From Pyrodictiaceae archaeon (GTDB lineage: Archaea > Thermoproteota > Thermoprotei_A > Sulfolobales > Pyrodictiaceae), in NCBI GenBank assembly GCA_027036135.1, contig JALVSY010000030.1, positions 64,001-128,000 of the forward strand: a DNA stretch of 64,000 nucleotides. The letters are read 5' to 3'. The notes beneath the pieces are model-generated. The model saw nothing but the letters and a program-made list of their open reading frames with translations, had not been told where the DNA came from and made no database searches. Made by a program: the position numbers and the translations under genes. Below, in pieces: positions 17,056 through 28,639 of this stretch (the stretch's first letter is position 1; each line of letters starts with the position of its first letter).

Positions 17056-19794
17056 CTATCTTGTTATATTTATAAGCCATATCTCCCTCGTACCATCTGC
17101 CCTGATAAACAAGAGTGATGTCGTGTTATAGGCCTCTAGTCTATCTCCTGGCCCCCAGGGCAGAAACGGCAATGTTACAATATAGGGAATGGTCTCGCCG
17201 GTTCCTAGGTCTATTTGGTATAAGCCCCCTCTCTCAAGTAGTACCCATAGATTGTTACCCGTGTATGCCATGCCGACGGGGTGGCTCCCCGGAGCCAGTC
17301 CAAGGACTTCTATGTTGACACCCGTGCTTGTCGCGGCCGCCTCTATTATGACTGGTTGCCCGCTTGACTTGTTATATGCTATGAAGTAGGCATGCAAGAA
17401 GTCACTAGTATGAGCTGATGCCGGGTAACTATATGGCGGCCCTACTACTAGGTCGCCAGGCAATGTACCGTTTGCGACTAAGGCGCCAGTGTTGAGGCTC
17501 ACTACGCAGTACTGATTACCCCCGGTTAACACTACTAGGTATGCATCCGTACTGGTATTTATGGCCTCTGCATCAACGCCCTGCTGCAGCGCTCGGCAAC
17601 TCGTGGTTAGGAGTGTCCAGTTTCCGCTTGGGCTGAGAGGAGCCGTGTATATACCGGTAGCATTAACTAGGACCAAGAGGTTCCTCGCAGCGCTATAAGT
17701 TATCGCCGCTGTGCCATTGAATACAGTGTTTGCTGGTATATCGTAGAGCTTAGTCAGGGAGGGGAGCTGGTAAACCTCTATGAAGTCTAAGCCGCCCGGC
17801 GCCACCAGTAATGCATTGAATACAGAGCGAGAAGCCTCTTGGTATAGGGCGTTCAACATATCGATGCTTATACTCGCTGGCCCCGGAGCCCTATAGATAA
17901 GCCTAACCTTGACGGTATCGTTAGCCGTGTTTACAAGCCCATCGTAGTTCTCTATAGTTTTGTTCGCGGATAGCGTGCCACCACTATAGCTTCCCGATGC
18001 GAGTAAGAGCCAGGCACCGCTACTCCAGTTATATAGCCATAAAGTATAGCTCCCAGTGGATATATTTGACAAAAATACCGTCTTCGCCCCAAGACTATAC
18101 GGGTTAGTATCCGGAATGGTCGCATAAGCGACCAAGTCAGCGACGTACTCCTTTACAAAGCTTAGACTATAAGCATTGCCGCCATAGACCACGCTATACT
18201 TACCACCAGTAAGGCCGCTAAGAGTATCGTTTAGCACTAGGTCTCCCTGGCTATCATAAACGACTATACGTGCATCCCGTACAATCGGGTGCCAAGTAAC
18301 ATCAAGCACAGCAATACCATCAGTATTAGTAGTATTGCTGGCAACCAGTAACGAGCCACTATAAAGCTCAACAGTCCAGCCCGAAACCGGATTACCGTTA
18401 AGAGTAACCGTGAAGTTAACAAACCTAGGATTAGCATAAGACACTATAAAGTTATCAAAGCTCGCACTCGATCTATAGGTGCCCACGCCAAGCTCTGTCG
18501 GGGTAAAGGTAGTGTCAACAGCACTCACCGATCCAACAAGCCCGTTTGCGTCATAAACGTCTAGTCGCATATAGCCGCTTGAAGGATTGTAATAAACAAG
18601 GGATGTATACCAGATATTGGTATTTACAGTTGCTGGCGCACTATTAAGTAATTCCCATCCAAATAAATTATTAGGATTATAAATCCATATATCTATACTT
18701 GAGTTTTCTACATCTATGCTAAATTCATATAACATTGATGCCGTTGAATTAAAGAGAACTATATCATTATACCCACTCCCCGTATAGATCTGAGACATGA
18801 CATAATAGGGCCTTGAGGGCGCGCTAATACTTGTCGGATATGCTATGTATTCACCGCCTATGCCACCTGTTGTTCTGGTACTTGTTTGTTGTATTCCGGC
18901 TGTCCCGTTATAGCCTATGTTGCTGTTCCAACTCCATGTCCCGCCTATTGTTCCCCAGGTGCCGCTTGTGAATGGGTCTCCGCTCTCAAAGTCCGTGGCA
19001 TAGACTAGATTGTTAGTTATATTGATGCCTTGGAATGTTATTGCTTGCTGTGTATCAATATTCATGGTGTTACCATCGCTTATGTTTAGGCTCACTGCGT
19101 TGCCGCTTACTAGCTCGCCTTCTAGCACATTATATGAGGCTACGTTGCCGTAGTTATTTGTAAGTATTGTTCCGTTTACTATTCCTTTCCATGTCTGTGT
19201 CCAGTCACTGGGCGCTATATCCATAAGGGCTAGGAGGCTTGCCGCGGGAGCTGTTGTGCTGCTTGTTGAGGTGTATAGTTGCTTATTCTTTATTGTTATT
19301 ACTGCTACTGCTGGGCTTGCTGATAGCGTTGCTGATATGGTTATTGGCTGGGTTGCCTGGTTTATTGTGACTTCGAGCGTGTCTCCTGGCGCCATTGTGA
19401 CTGGGAAGCTTGTTACTGTATATGTCGCTCCGCTTGCGCTTGTTATTGTAGCTGTTATCGTGGTGCCTAGCTCGGTGTAGCGGTCTATAGCTAGTGTTGT
19501 CTGGTTGTCCCAGAGTATGTCTATGCTTGTTATCGTGACTGCTCTGGGGGCGTTCGAGGTTATTGTTATCGTCAATGTACCAGTTAGATAGTCGTATGTG
19601 TAGTAGCTCTGTAGGCTTGAGGCTAGTAACTGGGTTGAGATCTTCTCCTGGGCTGCTTGGCTCACTGTGTTGAGTAGTTCTTTTTGCTGCGTGTTGAGGT
19701 AGAAGTAGAGGGCCAGCATTGCGAGTAGGGCTATTGCGAGCAGTACTCCCCCTATTATTGTTGCTATTGCCCTAGATCTTCTTAGCCGAGGCAT
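17056..19794 (-). CDS. large pilin-like surface protein / adhesin with class III signal peptide
   Basis: MPRLRRSRA|IATIIGG plus hydrophobic stretch; beta-rich, many NxS/T sites; LamG-like middle (FDNF.V); propeller-like C-terminus. Confidence 0.75.
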   Translation of the reverse strand: MPRLRRSRAIATIIGGVLLAIALLAMLALYFYLNTQQKELLNTVSQAAQEKISTQLLASSLQSYYTYDYLTGTLTITITSNAPRAVTITSIDILWDNQTTLAIDRYTELGTTITATITSASGATYTVTSFPVTMAPGDTLEVTINQATQPITISATLSASPAVAVITIKNKQLYTSTSSTTAPAASLLALMDIAPSDWTQTWKGIVNGTILTNNYGNVASYNVLEGELVSGNAVSLNISDGNTMNIDTQQAITFQGINITNNLVYATDFESGDPFTSGTWGTIGGTWSWNSNIGYNGTAGIQQTSTRTTGGIGGEYIAYPTSISAPSRPYYVMSQIYTGSGYNDIVLFNSTASMLYEFSIDVENSSIDIWIYNPNNLFGWELLNSAPATVNTNIWYTSLVYYNPSSGYMRLDVYDANGLVGSVSAVDTTFTPTELGVGTYRSSASFDNFIVSYANPRFVNFTVTLNGNPVSGWTVELYSGSLLVASNTTNTDGIAVLDVTWHPIVRDARIVVYDSQGDLVLNDTLSGLTGGKYSVVYGGNAYSLSFVKEYVADLVAYATIPDTNPYSLGAKTVFLSNISTGSYTLWLYNWSSGAWLLLASGSYSGGTLSANKTIENYDGLVNTANDTVKVRLIYRAPGPASISIDMLNALYQEASRSVFNALLVAPGGLDFIEVYQLPSLTKLYDIPANTVFNGTAAITYSAARNLLVLVNATGIYTAPLSPSGNWTLLTTSCRALQQGVDAEAINTSTDAYLVVLTGGNQYCVVSLNTGALVANGTLPGDLVVGPPYSYPASAHTSDFLHAYFIAYNKSSGQPVIIEAAATSTGVNIEVLGLAPGSHPVGMAYTGNNLWVLLERGGLYQIDLGTGETIPYIVTLPFLPWGPGDRLEAYNTTSLLFIRADGTREIWLINITR

Positions 19795-20227
19795 ATGCTT
19801 CTCCGCCCTCGTACACTATTTTTACATCTGCGTAGCTCTTGCCGCCGAGGTTACAGGTTATTGTCGCTGCTGCGTAGTATGGGAGTACTATGTTATGCGG
19901 TATCAGTGTTTGGCCATTGTTTAGGCTTAGTGTGCACTTGTCGCTCCACAGGGTATTGTTAATGTATATGTCGTATAGTTTTACCGGAGTGTTATCGGTT
20001 ACTATTACTACGTGGAGCACGCCATTACTATCTATATAGGCTAGGGCTATTGTGAGATCTTGCCTCGACTCTATGGTTGTTTTTATCAGCTGTTGTTCTG
20101 CTAGTTGCTGCGCGGTATAAGTGTTCTCAATTATCCTTGAGATTACTAGGGCTCCGACGCCAAGCACTATTATAGCTAGCAGTGCTGCTGAGACGTACTC
20201 GCTTATTCCTCGCAGAGGCCTCCGCAC
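19772..20227 (-). CDS. archaeal type IV pilin-like protein
   Basis: MRRPLRG|ISEYVSAALL class III signal peptide; DIYIN motif. Confidence 0.8.
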   Translation of the reverse strand: MRRPLRGISEYVSAALLAIIVLGVGALVISRIIENTYTAQQLAEQQLIKTTIESRQDLTIALAYIDSNGVLHVVIVTDNTPVKLYDIYINNTLWSDKCTLSLNNGQTLIPHNIVLPYYAAATITCNLGGKSYADVKIVYEGGEAYASAKKI

Positions 20228-21465: not shown

Positions 21466-22122
21466 TTACGACTGATGAATAGGGTCTCTATGCAATACGC
21501 TAATTAGCGTTCTGCATCCTTTTCCTAGTCTCGCAAAGAGCGTTTTGTAATAGTCCTCGAGGCTTTGTGACACTATTATTAGGTGTGGTAGCCGTGTGTC
21601 CAGGCAGCTCGCCATTATTGCTCCGAGCTCGTATTGGCGGATAGTGCTTGGCTCATTGTCTATGAGCATATTTATTGTTAATACTTCTTTGTGCTTTGTT
21701 GTAAGTACTATGTCGTGGAGATAACTTGTACCTGTTGAGCCAGTTACTAGGCTGGATACTTGATGTTCGAGGCCAAGGCCTCTAGCTGCCTTCATTACCG
21801 CGGCGTAGGCGTTCTCCTTTGCTCCTTCCTGTCTTGTTTCGCTCTCAATGCCTAGTCCTCTCTGGAGTACGCGTAGTAGTGAGAGAAAGAATGAGCCCTT
21901 GCGGGTTATGTTGTATAGGCATACGCCTCTGCTACAAGTTGTCTCTAGTAGGCCTAGCCTGTGAAGCCTTGTGGCTAGGCGTGAGAAGCTCTGAGGGTTT
22001 AGGTTCGCGAGGTGCATTAGCCTTGTCTTGCGTATGGGGCCTTTATGGCTAAGTATCGACAGTATGTCACCTACTATGATGAGGACGTCTCTGCGGCGTG
22101 ATCGCGTCATTTTCTTGTACAA
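21466..22122 (-). CDS. winged-helix regulator with a C-terminal restriction-endonuclease-like domain
   Basis: RR....IV.DIL, KT.LM..ANLN, Y.IT.KG..FL; C-terminal VTGSTGTSY.HDIV. Confidence 0.75.
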   Translation of the reverse strand: MYKKMTRSRRRDVLIIVGDILSILSHKGPIRKTRLMHLANLNPQSFSRLATRLHRLGLLETTCSRGVCLYNITRKGSFFLSLLRVLQRGLGIESETRQEGAKENAYAAVMKAARGLGLEHQVSSLVTGSTGTSYLHDIVLTTKHKEVLTINMLIDNEPSTIRQYELGAIMASCLDTRLPHLIIVSQSLEDYYKTLFARLGKGCRTLISVLHRDPIHQS

Positions 22123-22260
22123 CTCCTGGATGGATAGGGTCTACGGATATGGAGATGTATTGTAAAAATACTGGGTATCCGTTTATGTCTTTGTATCTCT
22201 TAGCTATTTATTAGAGTTGTGTACTGGGGCTACGCAATGTATAAAAGACTCCTCCAAGAC

Positions 22261-23256
22261 TCATTGATTATCTTCCTTATCCGTACTTGTTTTTGCGCAG
22301 AGGAAGAGCCTCGCTATAGGTGTACAGGCTAGTCCTTCTTCTCGGCTGAGCAATAGTGGTTGACCTGTTCTCTCCGCTAGTCTCGCTACGTCTTGGATAC
22401 CCGTTGCCTCGACGTAGTCTCTTGGAGGTGTTTTTAGCTCTATTACCGGGACTGTTAGTGATTCTAGGATCTCTACTGGGGTTCTTCGGTGCGCTCGGGC
22501 GTAGAGCACTGAACCCGTTAATGCCAGGGCTATTCCAGCAGAGAACGCTGCTAGTAGCAGCTTCCTCGTCGCTGTTGTGTCCCGTATTTGGTTGCCCTGA
22601 CTGGTTGTTGCTGGGAGTGTTATTGTTTCTGTTCCTTGGCTACTGGTGACTGTTACTTTGTAGAGGGGCTCGTTGTACCCCAGGCTTATCTTTATTGAGG
22701 GGTTCATCGTTATCGTCTTGTTCGCTATTCTTGTGGCTGCCTCTAGTCTTACTTCGAGGCTCATATCGGTTGTCACTGGTAGCCCGGTCTCGCGTAGCAG
22801 CTTTAGTGAAGTGTTTCTCGCTTCCCCTAGTCCTAGGTCTACGATTATCCTTGCTCCCGGGGCTAGTGCTCCCTTGGTCACGTTTAACTTCACTGAGAAG
22901 GGGCCTATGTTTAACTGCCTCGTCAACGTATAGTGTATGTCCCGTGCCCCTATACTTGGCGGCATCTTTAGCTCTAGCTTGAATATGCCATAGGCTCTAT
23001 GCAGGAGTTTTACTGGTAGCGCTCCCTGGGATAGTATCTCAGCCGTACCGTTGGGGTATATGAGGCTCTTCTCTGTCACCGCGTAGAGGCTTGCCTGTGC
23101 AGAGTACCGGAGAGTAACGGTGTTGTTGCTCTGGGCTGTTGCAGTGGCTGGCTTACTCGTGACTAGGAGACCCGTAGCAGCGAAGGCTGCTATGCCTAGC
23201 CCGAGGAGTATCAATGCTATTGCTACTGTGTAAGTGGCTGGTCTTTTCCCAGACAA
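22261..23256 (-). CDS. membrane-anchored accessory protein of the SipW cluster (DUF5305-like)
   Basis: N-terminal signal/TM, beta-rich ectodomain, second TM, cytoplasmic tail DVARLAE..GQPLL. Confidence 0.6.
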   Translation of the reverse strand: MSGKRPATYTVAIALILLGLGIAAFAATGLLVTSKPATATAQSNNTVTLRYSAQASLYAVTEKSLIYPNGTAEILSQGALPVKLLHRAYGIFKLELKMPPSIGARDIHYTLTRQLNIGPFSVKLNVTKGALAPGARIIVDLGLGEARNTSLKLLRETGLPVTTDMSLEVRLEAATRIANKTITMNPSIKISLGYNEPLYKVTVTSSQGTETITLPATTSQGNQIRDTTATRKLLLAAFSAGIALALTGSVLYARAHRRTPVEILESLTVPVIELKTPPRDYVEATGIQDVARLAERTGQPLLLSREEGLACTPIARLFLCAKTSTDKEDNQ

Positions 23257-23285
23257 CTCAGTTCAACACACAGTGGATTGAATGG

Positions 23286-23333
23286 TTCCCCGGGAAACGC
23301 TAACTGAGAAAAACAAGAGCTGGGTCCCGGGGA
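23286..23333. repeat. intergenic inverted repeat (hairpin)
   Basis: GTTCCCCGGGA ... TCCCGGGGAAC. Confidence 0.7.
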
Positions 23334-23389
23334 ACGATCTCCAGGGATATACTCGTGGTAGCTATTATTCAATTTTCCGGCTCTCCATG

Positions 23390-24610
23390 CTATGTTACTA
23401 CTCTCTCACGGAGTGAACGTACAAGAGCTGGGAGCATTATCAGTGCTATGATTGTTGCTAATAGTAGCATTTGCGCAGCAAATACGTCTCCTCCTAGGAT
23501 CCTTGCAACCGTTATTAGTGGTAGGCCCGCATAAGGTATGCGAAGATATAGCTTGCCTAGAACTTGTCTCGTAGTTATCGGGTTATCTGGTGCATTATTC
23601 GCATCGCCTTTTGTCACTAACTGGTTCCTAGTAACGTTGATTACTCTGTGAAGAATTATCATCCCAGAGTACTTGTAGGCTACCACATCACCAACACGTG
23701 GTTCTTGCTGGATCTTCTTCACAACCACTATGTCTCCTATCCTTATACTGGGCTCCATGCTCCCGCTGAGTACTATCATTGGCCAGTATCCTTTCCAGAG
23801 CACGAGGAGGAAAAGGAAAACCGCTAGCGCGGTTGCTATGATGGTTCCGGGCCCAACATTCCTCTCCCCGGTGTTGCCACGTATCAGCGCTACACGCGAA
23901 CTCGTATAGAGCACTATTAGCATTGATGGAAGCATTACTAGGAAACTAGACAAGGCCGACGGAAGGTAGGGAAGGAGAGGAGAAACCATTACGGGGAGCC
24001 TTATTCCAAGCACGTAGCCTATAGCCAGGCTCCTAGAGCCGTACCGTAGCAGCGTAATGGTACTAGCAAGGAGAGAGAAGAGAGCAACTAAGCCCAAACC
24101 AGTATTCATCAGCACTTGTCTATTAGCTCCAAGACCTATTTCGGAGACATTGACAAACATGTCGAGAAATACTAAGAAGCCAAGCAAGCCAAGCAGTAAC
24201 CGTCTCACCCCATGAGTTCCTCGGCTAAGCAACTCACCCAATCCCATGACGGCTACCACTATTAGAGGCGCATCCATAGCGAAGTTAAGCAAGCCAGTAA
24301 CAATACCTGGCGCATAGCTATTAACCGCGAACCCATTGATTAGCGCAAAGGCAACTAACAAGCTATACCATAGACTAAGAGCGGTCATAACCGCTGCCGA
24401 AAGCTCCTTTCCAAGAGGGGCCGCACTTCCTCGATGACTATGAAGTAGAAGCGCTAACAACATTGTGGCTAGGAGAGCCTCTAGGAGCCTAGGATAACCA
24501 AGCAGATTTACGCCTAGAAGGACATTACTCACTAAGACAAATTCTGCGCTAGCCAACGCTACTATAGCAAGACGCATTACCACTTCATTATGGCCCATGA
24601 GCATTCCCAC
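23390..24610 (-). CDS. sipW: SipW-type (S26B) signal peptidase with a multi-TM N-terminal extension
   Basis: VLSGSMEP, GDIV, ILHRV, TKGDAN..PD, IPYAG; about 8 N-terminal hydrophobic helices. Confidence 0.88.
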   Translation of the reverse strand: MGMLMGHNEVVMRLAIVALASAEFVLVSNVLLGVNLLGYPRLLEALLATMLLALLLHSHRGSAAPLGKELSAAVMTALSLWYSLLVAFALINGFAVNSYAPGIVTGLLNFAMDAPLIVVAVMGLGELLSRGTHGVRRLLLGLLGFLVFLDMFVNVSEIGLGANRQVLMNTGLGLVALFSLLASTITLLRYGSRSLAIGYVLGIRLPVMVSPLLPYLPSALSSFLVMLPSMLIVLYTSSRVALIRGNTGERNVGPGTIIATALAVFLFLLVLWKGYWPMIVLSGSMEPSIRIGDIVVVKKIQQEPRVGDVVAYKYSGMIILHRVINVTRNQLVTKGDANNAPDNPITTRQVLGKLYLRIPYAGLPLITVARILGGDVFAAQMLLLATIIALIMLPALVRSLRERVVT

Positions 24611-24709
24611 GCTTATTAAAACTAGGGGTATCGATTTAGGAAAGAGGGAAGGAGCACCCTCCTTCCCGGGAACAAAACTCTCATTGACTATGTATTAGTT
24701 AGCACTGTG

Positions 24710-25405
24710 TTATCGCGGTGTTGGCGTGCTGTATTCGTTCCATTGGACTGCTTGGAGTAGTACTAGGAAGTTCAGTGTCGTGCCCTGCGGGGCTGATTGT
24801 AGTACTGTTAGGTCTAGGCTTATGTCTGCACATTGGCCTGGATGTAACTGTGTGCCGAAGTTATCTCCCCACCATATGGTTATGTCTGGTGATGTATCGT
24901 TATTTAGATCTACTTCCACGCCCTGGTTCAGTTCTTGCTCGTTTAGCTCATAGTAGTACTGGCCATCTACTTGTACTCTCCATATCTTTATTGGTATAGT
25001 GCCATCGTTACACACCTTGAATTCTATATGAGTATAATACCATGGATACACATTAACAAGTGTAATGTTTAGTGCGTCATAGTCGCCATCACCGTCAGTG
25101 TCTACTAGTGTTACGTTAGTGCATCCGACATCCTTGCCTTCGGGCGGTGATAGTTGCTCTGCCCCTGGTTGCGGATAGTATGATGCGTTCCAGTCATAAC
25201 CTCCGCTCTGGCCATAGCCTGGCTGCAACCCACATGCATCTAGAAGTATTAGTGAACCATTCTGTGTAGCGAAGTCAACTTCACCAGTATTTGCTACTCC
25301 GTTTACTTTGAGTGTCTGGCTCCACATTGAGTACGCTAAACCGATCGATACTATCATTATTGCTGCTACTGCTAGTGCTATGCTCATTCCTCTACTTATG
25401 TACAT
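24710..25405 (-). CDS. TasA/AbpA-like SipW-processed filament subunit 1
   Basis: Signal ending GLAYS|MWSQTLKVNG.ANTGEVD; N.YP.Y, N.GTIP.K, C-terminal QWNE; DTDGDGD acidic loop. Confidence 0.8.
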   Translation of the reverse strand: MYISRGMSIALAVAAIMIVSIGLAYSMWSQTLKVNGVANTGEVDFATQNGSLILLDACGLQPGYGQSGGYDWNASYYPQPGAEQLSPPEGKDVGCTNVTLVDTDGDGDYDALNITLVNVYPWYYTHIEFKVCNDGTIPIKIWRVQVDGQYYYELNEQELNQGVEVDLNNDTSPDITIWWGDNFGTQLHPGQCADISLDLTVLQSAPQGTTLNFLVLLQAVQWNEYSTPTPR

Positions 25406-25552
25406 GACTTATCCAACTCACATAGTTACGAGGGATCTATGCCCTGGGTTAAGAGCAGAGAGGCTTGCCTCCTCTCATGCTCTGAGTCTTGGTGGAAAAA
25501 TCTTGTACCAGTTGCTTACTTTCATATTTATTGACTAGCCTTCTATGCTACG

Positions 25553-26104
25553 TTACGGGCCTGTTACTTCGTTCCACTGAGCAAATGTCAATGTTACCGT
25601 GAAGCTATAGGATGCGTTCTCGTCTGCGCTCTGGGGCACGAATACTGAGATCTGGTATGTGCTTGTCTCATCTGGGTGCATCTGGGTTGATGTCGGTGTG
25701 ACTAGGTTTACTTGTAGTGGGTCGTCGGCCACGACTGATGAGTTGTATAGCTTAACCGGTATTGTACCTATATTTGTTATGTTTAAGGTTATTACTGGGT
25801 TGTAGCCTGGGTACGCGTTGTTTATCGTTATGTTTAGGGTTATGGCGTTGTTATCTGCGTCTACCTCTGCTACTTCTATGTTGCAGCCAGCTACGTCCTT
25901 GTTCTCCTCGTTATGGAACGTTGAGTTCGGTAGTTATGGATCAGCTCCATTATCGCTGCAGCTCCAGCCAGTAAACGCTACTTTTACTTCGCCAGTATTG
26001 ACAACGCCGTTTACCTTTATTGTCTCGCTCCACATCGAGTAGGCTCCTATTATTGACGCTAGCATTACTCCTACAATGGCTAGTCCAAATATAGCTGCTT
26101 TCAT
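25553..26104 (-). pseudogene. TasA/AbpA-like filament subunit 2 with in-frame TAA at 25934-25936
   Basis: MKAAIFGLAIVGVMLASIIGAYSMWSETIKVNGVVNTGEV...DP*LPN...NAYPGY...NIGTIPVK...AQWNEVTGP; absent from the ORF track. Confidence 0.85.
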
Positions 26105-26233
26105 GATGTTTCAGCCCACTTTTTGTCATGTATAGAAAGTGTTGACCTGAATATAAATAGGTTCTACATTAAGAGAAAATATTAGCTCTATAGATTACCA
26201 GTATATATGCCGAGTACATAGCACGTGTAATGA

Positions 26234-27663: not shown

Positions 27664-28639
27664 ATGGAGTACACGGAGCTAGGTAGGACTGGGCTACGGG
27701 TCTCGCGGATAGGGCTGGGCGCCTGGCAATTCACGGAGGCTTGGGGCCTAACGGAGTATGCTAAGGCCCGCGAGGTCGTGAAGAGAGCACTTGAGCACAG
27801 GATAAACTTCTTCGATACCGCTATGGTGTACGGGCTTGGCATGAGCGAGACCTTTCTCGGAAGAGCACTAAGAGAGGCAGGTGCTAAGCGCGATGAGATC
27901 GTGGTCTCAACCAAGATTCCCGGCGAGTTCCTCAACCCAGGCGACATCTACAAGGCCATTGAGAAGAGCTTGAAGAACCTCGGCTTCAGCTACGTCGATA
28001 TATTGCTTGCTCACTGGCCCCCCTGCTGGCACAACTTCCCTACATGCGAGTATGCGAGAGCGCTTGAAAAAGCTAGTAGAGCTCGGCAAGGTAGGCTACC
28101 TAGGCCTAAGCGACTACCCCGTCGAACTCATCGAGGCGTTTCGACACTGCCTGGCAAGGCACGATGTACAGGTGCTGCAGCTGCGCTACAACCTGGTTGA
28201 GAGATGGGCTGAGAAGCAGCACATACCCTATGCTGAGAGGCACGACATGAGCGTACAGGCTTGGAGCCCGATAGCTAAGGGAGCGTTAACGGGCAAGTAC
28301 GAGCTAGGTAAGCTCGAGTTCCAGGACATTAGGGCCCGGGAACCAATATTTCACCCAGAGAACTACTCCAAGGTGTGAAGACTGGTTGAGCTTCTAAGAG
28401 AGATAGGGAAAAGGTACAACAAGAAGCCAGTACAGGTAGCGCTTAACTGGCTAATAATGAGTAGCCCTGCTGTAATACCAATACCTGGCGCAAAGAGACC
28501 CGAGCAAGTAGATGACCTGGTAGGAGCAACCGGGTGGAGACTAAGCTATAGTGATTGGCGCCTACTAGAGGAGGAGTCTAGGCGGATAGAGATTAGCTAC
28601 TCGGTGTTTTACCGGGAGAAAAAGACCGAGATAAAGTAG
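27664..28639 (+). pseudogene. aldo/keto reductase disrupted by a frameshift and a stop
   Basis: FFDTA.VYG, STK, HWP; frameshift at the A5 run 28067-28071; TGA at 28376-28378; C-terminal PIPGAK. Confidence 0.88.

Follow-up and report, generated by a model that had tools for sequence, protein, structure and literature searches.

A Pyrodictiaceae-like archaeon with a probable abpX-type fibre locus (TasA superfamily) and a nonsense codon in its major-type subunit gene

The DNA analyzed here, hereafter called the window, is a stretch of 64,000 nucleotides from a Pyrodictiaceae archaeon (contig JALVSY010000030.1, positions 64,001 to 128,000). A co-oriented set of five genes on its minus strand, spanning positions 26104-21466 by translation and reading of the open frames, very probably constitutes a fibre module of the abpX type, within the TasA superfamily. 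The archaeon, which is Pyrodictiaceae-like, has most likely lost the normal fibre through the conversion of Gln57 of the major-type subunit to TAA. The family, its mechanism and the layout of its loci were already published in 2025-2026, and the window contains a further member. What goes beyond the literature is at the level of the strain only: a recent nonsense allele in this locus, and a parallel case in another locus elsewhere in the genome.

The first two genes encode secreted subunits. Subunit gene 1 (25553-26104, minus strand; 183 codons if read through) is of the major AbpX-like type and contains a stop at codon 57. It reads MKAAIFGLAIVGVMLASIIGAYS/MWSETIKVNGVVNTGEV..., with the cleavage context GAYS/MWSETIKVNGVVNTGEV (the slash marks the predicted cleavage site). 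Subunit gene 2 (24710-25405, minus strand) is of the minor AbpX-like type, is intact (231 amino acids) and reads ...SIGLAYS/MWSQTLKVNGVANTGEV.... The two proteins share the motifs N-x-Y-P-x-Y (NAYPGY and NVYPWY, respectively, in subunits 1 and 2) and N-x-G-T-I-P-x-K (NIGTIPVK and NDGTIPIK, respectively), as well as a terminal Q-W-N-E, and profile-profile comparison indicates that the two subunit families are paralogous (probability 100%, E 4.3e-41, 183 columns). Signal peptides occupy residues 1-23 of subunit 1 and 1-26 of subunit 2, with predicted cleavage at AYS/MWSE and AYS/MWSQ, respectively; these sites follow from the -3/-1 rule and from comparison with AbpX, whose chain has a single residue ahead of its W. 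Subunit 2 additionally carries two conserved Cys residues, C58 and C95.

Both subunits are homologous to AbpX of Pyrodictium abyssi, which polymerizes via donor-strand complementation with Ca2+ bound, as seen by cryo-electron microscopy (10.64898/2026.01.04.697558). A profile built from 13 orthologues of subunit 1 matched the AbpX chain 9sj2_C with an E of 7.5e-13 over AbpX residues 2-139 of 163, and the single orthologue from the close relative L001 did so at E 1.8e-6. The corresponding profile of 32 subunit-2 relatives matched AbpX at E 2.6e-5, and subunit 2 of the window, taken alone, at E 0.015. The relationship extends to proteins already named in the literature: P0018, which is 62% identical to subunit 2, is UniRef100_A0A2R7Y7T0, and the subunit-1-type homologue of Zestosphaera tikiterensis, P0156, is UniRef100_A0A2R7Y7S4; these are called 'AbpX-like minor fibril subunit' and 'major AbpX pilin', respectively, in the Z. 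tikiterensis example of 10.64898/2026.01.04.697558. A further protein of the subunit-1 type, P0137, is WP_055409108.1, named as a P. delaneyi AbpX-like protein (PMC12518558).

The N-terminal strand is the best conserved block of the subunits, with W28 invariant in the 32 subunit-2 relatives and W25 in the 13 subunit-1 relatives. Mature subunit 1 starts M-W-S-E-T-I-K-V, in which the donor-strand residues W2 and E4 are both present, and mature subunit 2 starts M-W-S-Q-T-L-K-V, in which W2 is kept. The donor-strand pattern W2, L/I6, V8, G10, A/V12 seen here corresponds to W2, L6, L8, A10, I12 of AbpX. Both mature subunits have an isoelectric point (pI) of 4.05 and an Asp+Glu content of 11-13%; a pI of about 4.0 and about 15% Asp+Glu are reported for the AbpX family (10.64898/2026.01.04.697558).

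Subunit 2 also contains an acidic loop, DTDGDGDYD, at residues 102-110 (codons at 25076-25102, minus strand). Across the 32 subunit-2 relatives, G107 never varies, and D102, D104, D106, D108 and D110 hardly do. By alignment, the AbpX Ca2+ ligands D18, D46, D48 and E52 fall on D44, D104, D106 and D110 of subunit 2, making the loop the homologous site by alignment, and a candidate for Ca2+ binding. An earlier reading of this DNA, the preliminary description, had suggested Ca2+ binding by the DTDGDGD loop, and the alignment with D46, D48 and E52 is consistent with that suggestion.

The arrangement of the genes is conserved. In a survey of 18 related genome loci, a paralogous subunit gene lay directly upstream of the gene-2 homologue in 16/16 loci with upstream DNA, and a peptidase homologue was found downstream in 17/18, the 18th locus ending just past subunit 2. 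A winged helix-turn-helix (wHTH) homologue adjoined the subunit genes in 12/18 loci, mostly upstream of subunit 1; in the window and in L001, the regulator is downstream of the DUF5305 gene. Two loci (L008 and L016) have a third subunit-like open reading frame (ORF). Within the order, matches to the subunit-1 profile, most often two genes side by side, came from 52 of 151 genomes and 27 of 58 genera. Named sources of relatives include Pyrofollis, Pyrodictium, Desulfurococcus, Ignisphaera, Zestosphaera and Thermosphaera, plus one Syntrophomonadaceae bacterium.

The third gene of the set (23390-24610, minus strand; 406 amino acids, start codon uncertain) encodes an archaeal/endoplasmic reticulum (ER)-type signal peptidase I. 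The protein matched TIGR02228 (archaeal signal peptidase I) over residues 262-379 with 84.4 bits, against a cut-off of 51.85, and scored 57.7 bits with the SipW model NF046067, short of the equivalog cut-off of 190. Its catalytic residues are intact: S284, H321, D336 and D342 are invariant in the 12 locus orthologues. Hydropathy and an AlphaFold2 (AF2) model together give ten helices, eight of them N-terminal, followed by an anchor at 254-272 and one C-terminal helix at 376-405. In the AF2 model, the catalytic domain (275-358) has a predicted local distance difference test score (pLDDT) above 85, and the membrane part a low one of about 50-60. When the first 250 residues were searched in the ESM Atlas, all clusters obtained were unnamed and scored below 0.9. 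The genome holds three signal peptidase I genes, the peptidase of this locus among them.

The fourth gene (22261-23256, minus strand) encodes a protein of 331 amino acids with hydrophobic spans at 5-34 and 232-253, a beta-rich ectodomain between them and a cytoplasmic tail, a layout that fits the DUF5305 family. Positional orthologues 3' of the peptidase gene scored above the Pfam cut-off in 5/8 loci scanned, and in a profile-profile comparison the window protein matched a set of 6 positional orthologues, 5 of which pass the cut-off, with a probability of 93% (E 3.3e-7, 267 columns). A role for the DUF5305 protein as a signal-peptidase accessory subunit has been proposed (10.64898/2026.01.04.697558), and we propose that the two-transmembrane (TM) protein of the window is a divergent DUF5305 member with this function. 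The last gene (21466-22122, minus strand; 218 amino acids) encodes a predicted winged-helix regulator that matched HTH_45 (PF14947) at residues 10-87 with 34 bits (cut-off 25.5); its C-terminal half is uncharacterized, and searches of PDB sequences with the wHTH protein gave no matches.

Between the genes lie spacers of 99-147 bases with hairpin-like repeats. The spacers at 24611-24709, 25406-25552 and 23257-23389 (minus strand) carry G+C-rich inverted repeats and short T-runs, examples being GGGAAGGAGGG...CCTTCCC and TTCCCCGGGA / TTCCCGGGGAA. These repeats are possibly attenuators that tune the ratio of subunit to peptidase. A scan of the spacers with a simple pattern yielded a TATA-like box at just two places, ahead of gene 1 and 123 bases ahead of gene 5. 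The former, TTTATA at 26152-26157 (minus strand), lies 53 bases upstream of the start of subunit gene 1 and is a candidate archaeal promoter.

These results confirm a good part of the preliminary description and amend the rest. The S26B peptidase with about 8 extra N-terminal TM helices and the wHTH regulator were both recognized correctly, and the gene set, whose lack of synteny in relatives had been named as grounds for abandoning the proposal, proved to be syntenic as regards the subunit pair and the peptidase. The polytopic extension of the peptidase could conceivably be an assembly platform, as that description proposed. The five co-oriented genes are as described, but the word 'operon' goes too far, given the spacers. 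The two secreted subunits are indeed paralogues with shared motifs, but gene 1 is not an intact ORF. The fourth protein does have two spans, but the literature points to a DUF5305 accessory subunit rather than a fibre anchor. Lastly, the SipW/TasA-like fibre system survives in the AbpX homology and the dedicated peptidase, but not as TasA/AbpA proper: the models PF12389 and NF046067 are not reached, and no gene for a signal-peptide protein of roughly 400 amino acids (TapA/AbpB-like) adjoins the subunit genes of the window.

Taken together with the published work on AbpX, the gene set suggests the following scheme. Both paralogous subunits would be exported by Sec and cut after A-x-S/A by the ten-helix signal peptidase I of the locus, probably with the DUF5305 membrane protein. 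Cleavage would free an N-terminal amphipathic strand, M-W-S-E/Q-T-L/I-K-V-N-G-V, which would enter the open groove of the next subunit by donor-strand complementation, the joint being locked by Ca2+ held by the acidic loop and strand residue 4. The 183-residue subunit would be the major fibre protein and the 231-residue subunit a minor component, with the wHTH protein presumably regulating the genes of the locus. In this genome, a C-to-T change has turned Gln57 into TAA, and the normal fibre is most likely absent. Within this scheme, we infer donor-strand polymerization, Ca2+ dependence, the role of the DUF5305 protein, the major and minor roles of the subunits, and co-transcription.

Structure models were obtained for subunit 2. 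The AF2 monomer is all-beta (pLDDT 82.5), and its strand region at residues 30-44 is not folded in; an unfolded N-terminal strand region is likewise reported for AbpX monomers (10.64898/2026.01.04.697558). Prediction of a 3-copy complex of mature subunit 2 (27-231) gave a median of 0.38, against a mark of 0.42, and counts neither way (runs 0.38, 0.12 and 0.48; controls 0.00-0.02; alignment A1). Foldseek found nothing in the PDB for the subunit-2 model at E up to 0.001.

Several points weigh against the assignment to an abpX-type fibre module. The best matches to the subunit-2 model in wide and second-look VIA-align searches were generic beta-sandwiches (Z 5.2-5.4); the subunits of TasA (8aur_A), Tafi (9p0a_C) and thread (7pnb_A) fibres, at Z 4.3-4.5, were not singled out. 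AbpX entries were absent from the VIA-align matches, possibly because the structure library lacks them. PF12389 (Peptidase_M73, TasA/camelysin) gave subunit 2 11.5 bits (E 0.27), below the cut-off of 22.5, and the DUF5305-like protein reached 20.7 bits with PF17231, for which the cut-off is 29. The residue at position 4 of the subunit-2 strand is Gln instead of an acid, whereas most of its 31 relatives have Glu or Asp there. Subunit 1 lacks equivalents of D18 and E52, and keeps those of D46 and D48 together with E4. Lastly, fibre, processing, calcium binding and transcription are predicted for this organism, and co-transcription of the five genes is likewise presumed.

The distance from TasA itself is also apparent among the relatives. 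With an E limit of 1, PF12389 matched 4/32 subunit-2 relatives (the best at 9.3e-4); with a limit of 10, it matched none of the 13 subunit-1 relatives. No AbpA chain appeared among the PDB sequence matches of the subunits (profile searches at E up to 1, single-sequence searches at E up to 10). One might imagine that the subunits have the AbpX fold without forming fibres, and are instead secreted calcium-binding surface proteins, such as adhesins, S-layer-associated proteins or camelysin-like proteases. Such a function would sit well with the non-specific fold searches, with the FG-GAP-like DxDxDG loops found in large insertions of the minor-type subunit in 24/32 relatives, and with the fact that a polymer has been seen for no member outside P. 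abyssi. It leaves unexplained why the strand by which AbpX polymerizes, including W2, should be the best conserved block, and why a dedicated strand-freeing peptidase is syntenic; in addition, neither a metalloprotease motif nor a match to such a family turned up. We consider a non-fibre role very improbable, and retain the abpX-type fibre module as the reading of the locus.

The second element of our main finding is the TAA at codon 57 of gene 1 (25934-25936, minus strand), which falls on a conserved Gln position, with the same reading frame before and after. As written, the gene specifies 56 residues, that is, the 23-residue signal peptide and 33 mature residues. The position is Gln in 12/14 translated orthologous loci, the other two being the most divergent (L017 and L018) and without a clear counterpart; in L001 the codon is CAG. 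A 90%-identity cluster contains 11 members, 9 of which are full-length proteins of 183 amino acids with Gln57 in 9/9; the other two are the window's own 56-residue product and a 46-residue fragment. The public protein P0263 differs from the read-through product of the window solely by Gln at residue 57. Among sequencing runs, contigs of run X5 have G on the plus strand at 25936, giving CAA, whereas a contig of run X1 (word depth 959) and one of run X3 have TAA as in the window; contigs of run X4 do not cover 25895-26013.

The nonsense allele is thus real and recent. A public protein that matches the window's product everywhere else has Gln at this position, and a contig nearly identical to the window has CAA; sequence comparison thereby identifies the TAA as a recent C-to-T nonsense allele, not recoding. 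The major-type subunit would stop after 33 mature residues, and therefore this genome probably does not make the normal fibre. The minor subunit alone could at best form fibres or deposits.

If the TAA were read through or recoded, for example as Gln, full-length subunit 1 would be made and the locus would be fully functional. That the stop falls exactly on a conserved Gln codon, and that another subunit-like gene of the genome also has an in-frame stop, could be taken in this sense, as could the label 'tRNA-Stop (tta)' that ARAGORN in intron mode attaches to C7:282279-282396. The CAA/Gln in the otherwise identical protein and near-identical contig points instead to an ordinary C/T polymorphism, and relatives use Gln codons here (CAG in L001). 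Furthermore, TAA terminates 403 of the 1143 open frames of >=250 codons in the genome, 39 tRNAs were found by ARAGORN without intron mode, with 0 suppressors among them, and the stop in the second gene is a TAG at a Tyr position, and so involves another codon and another residue. Recoding is, in our view, extremely unlikely.

The putative stop tRNA was rejected as a splice-site artefact. An intron placed at the canonical position, after base 37, gives a perfect bulge-helix-bulge and the anticodon UUG, so that G000:C7:282279-282396 is predicted to be a tRNA-Gln (UUG) with a 42-base intron, for which ARAGORN in intron mode sets the splice site two bases early.

The TAA could alternatively be an assembly or sequencing error in a gene that is really intact. 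A hint of consensus problems could be seen in the adjoining aldo/keto reductase gene, which is also broken by a frameshift and a stop. Runs X1 and X3 may, moreover, both be sources of the assembly itself, leaving the TAA without fully independent confirmation, a point that also tells against our own reading of the allele. Against an error, the TAA stands in the X1 contig at a high word depth, at which a substitution would be atypical as an error, and again in the X3 contig, which has another study code; the 56-residue product is recorded from two contigs; and the completeness of the genome is 99.6%. We therefore regard an error as quite improbable, and keep to a recent nonsense allele.

The aldo/keto reductase gene (27664-28639, plus strand) was read against the intact 364-residue protein of L001. 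It switches frame near 28020-28070 and has an in-frame stop at 28376-28378, and therefore three nearby or related genes of the genome carry lesions.

The third of these genes lies outside the window, about 70 kilobases (kb) upstream in the contig, in a second locus that likewise has a signal peptidase I to itself (G000:C30, about 15.8-19.4 kb; L022 7859-11440, minus strand). Its peptidase (339 amino acids, TIGR02228 63.9 bits) has a C-terminal extension and adjoins a secreted beta-rich protein of 409 amino acids, a membrane protein of 196 amino acids and a subunit-like gene. The subunit-like gene opens with a 28-residue signal peptide, after which come an in-frame TAG and a further 166 codons; in G105, of the same genus, the position of the TAG is occupied by Tyr and the 197-residue protein is intact. 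Searches with the second-locus subunit gave no Pfam match and no PDB sequence match.

In-frame stops in genes of this kind were also looked for more widely. An independent case is G089:C1:63056-63595 (L023), where a major-type AbpX-like gene has an in-frame TGA at a Trp that is kept in G096 and G124 of the same genus. Of 6 rows with 'stops inside' in the survey of the order, 4 (G038, G057, G121 and G128) were discarded as natural terminators. A crude genome-wide screen for in-frame stops with coding-like sequence on either side gave 95 candidates, of which several that were placed (e.g. C30:16452) are packed neighbour genes in one frame.

Two secreted subunit-like genes of this genome have single-base stops (CAA to TAA, and TAY to TAG), each beside its own peptidase, and intact alleles circulate in the same habitats. 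For these reasons, one can envisage the nonsense alleles as a population-level off-switch for matrix fibres, with the exported 33-residue donor-strand peptide capping the grooves of neighbours' subunits, although we think this unlikely. The pattern would fit selection favouring variants that lack fibres and do not aggregate, whether as dispersers or as matrix cheaters, and the free 33-residue donor-strand peptide could be a natural polymerization inhibitor.

Other genes with some resemblance to fibre components were noted. A third, divergent AbpX-like frame lies about 180 kb downstream of the locus in the contig (G000:C30:267199-267774, plus strand; 192 codons). The frame matches the profile of subunit 1 with an E of 1e-3, carries an A/LWN...V.G.V.TG strand and an N-Q-G-T-I-P-L-K motif, is His-rich, and may act as a subunit on its own or as part of a tip. 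Within the window, at 17056-20227 (minus strand), are two genes with type IV pilin-like N-termini, one of 151 amino acids (MRRPLRG/ISEYVSAALL...) and one of 912 amino acids that is Asn/Thr-rich and without family match. These were considered as parts of the system and set aside: apart from the window, they adjoin the locus in its close relative L001 alone, and no pilus ATPase or other partner is nearby.

The locus adds a well-conserved example to the AbpX branch of the TasA superfamily, and independently confirms from raw sequence the published grammar of such loci, with major and minor subunits, a ten-helix peptidase, DUF5305 and a regulator. If selection rather than chance lies behind the nonsense allele, the intact and interrupted forms would provide a natural on/off pair for testing the use of the fibre to a hyperthermophile.

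Among known systems, the tapA-sipW-tasA operon of Bacillus subtilis (PMC9245690) shares with the window a secreted, strand-donating beta-sandwich subunit and an adjacent ER/archaeal-type signal peptidase I. The window differs in having no TapA-like gene, in subunits that score below the PF12389 cut-off, in the eight extra helices of its peptidase and in its DUF5305 partner, and Ca-dependent assembly would be expected here in place of TapA-assisted assembly. AbpA/AbpB of Pyrobaculum calidifontis (PDB 7UEG; PMC9245690) also belong to the TasA superfamily, use donor-strand complementation and have a wHTH gene in their locus. The window has neither an AbpA sequence match nor an AbpB (TapA-like) gene, and the AbpA locus has no dedicated signal peptidase. 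The haloarchaeal Tat-fimbriae, or Tafi pilus (PMC12337348, PMC11821415), are built on the same four-part module, with the strand-donating TafE pilin, the TafD peptidase, the DUF5305 protein TafG and the regulator TafB, and the Tafi pilin 9p0a_C is a weak fold match to subunit 2 (Z 4.5, 131 residues aligned); the subunits of the window differ in having Sec-type rather than Tat signal peptides, and PDB sequence searches gave no direct match to the Tafi pilin.

The closest counterparts are AbpX and the abpX-like loci. P. abyssi AbpX (PDB 9sj2, fibril, and 9rhp, self-complemented monomer) resembles the subunits of the window in sequence, in its W-S-E-T-L-type donor strand, in its low pI and in its acidic loop, the differences being the Gln at strand position 4 of subunit 2 and the nonsense codon in the major-type gene. 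For P. abyssi itself, a minimal locus is described (10.64898/2026.01.04.697558), unlike that of the window. The abpX-like locus, as described in the same source, comprises major and minor subunits, a ten-TM signal peptidase I, DUF5305 and occasional transcription factors. Relative to these loci, no predicted tip-protein gene was recognized in the window, and the regulator gene follows DUF5305, whereas in most of the related loci it lies upstream of subunit 1. One example is the abpX-like locus of Zestosphaera tikiterensis (10.64898/2026.01.04.697558; Nat Commun 2025, PMC12518558), which has the same parts as the window and whose two subunits are both directly orthologous to those described here.

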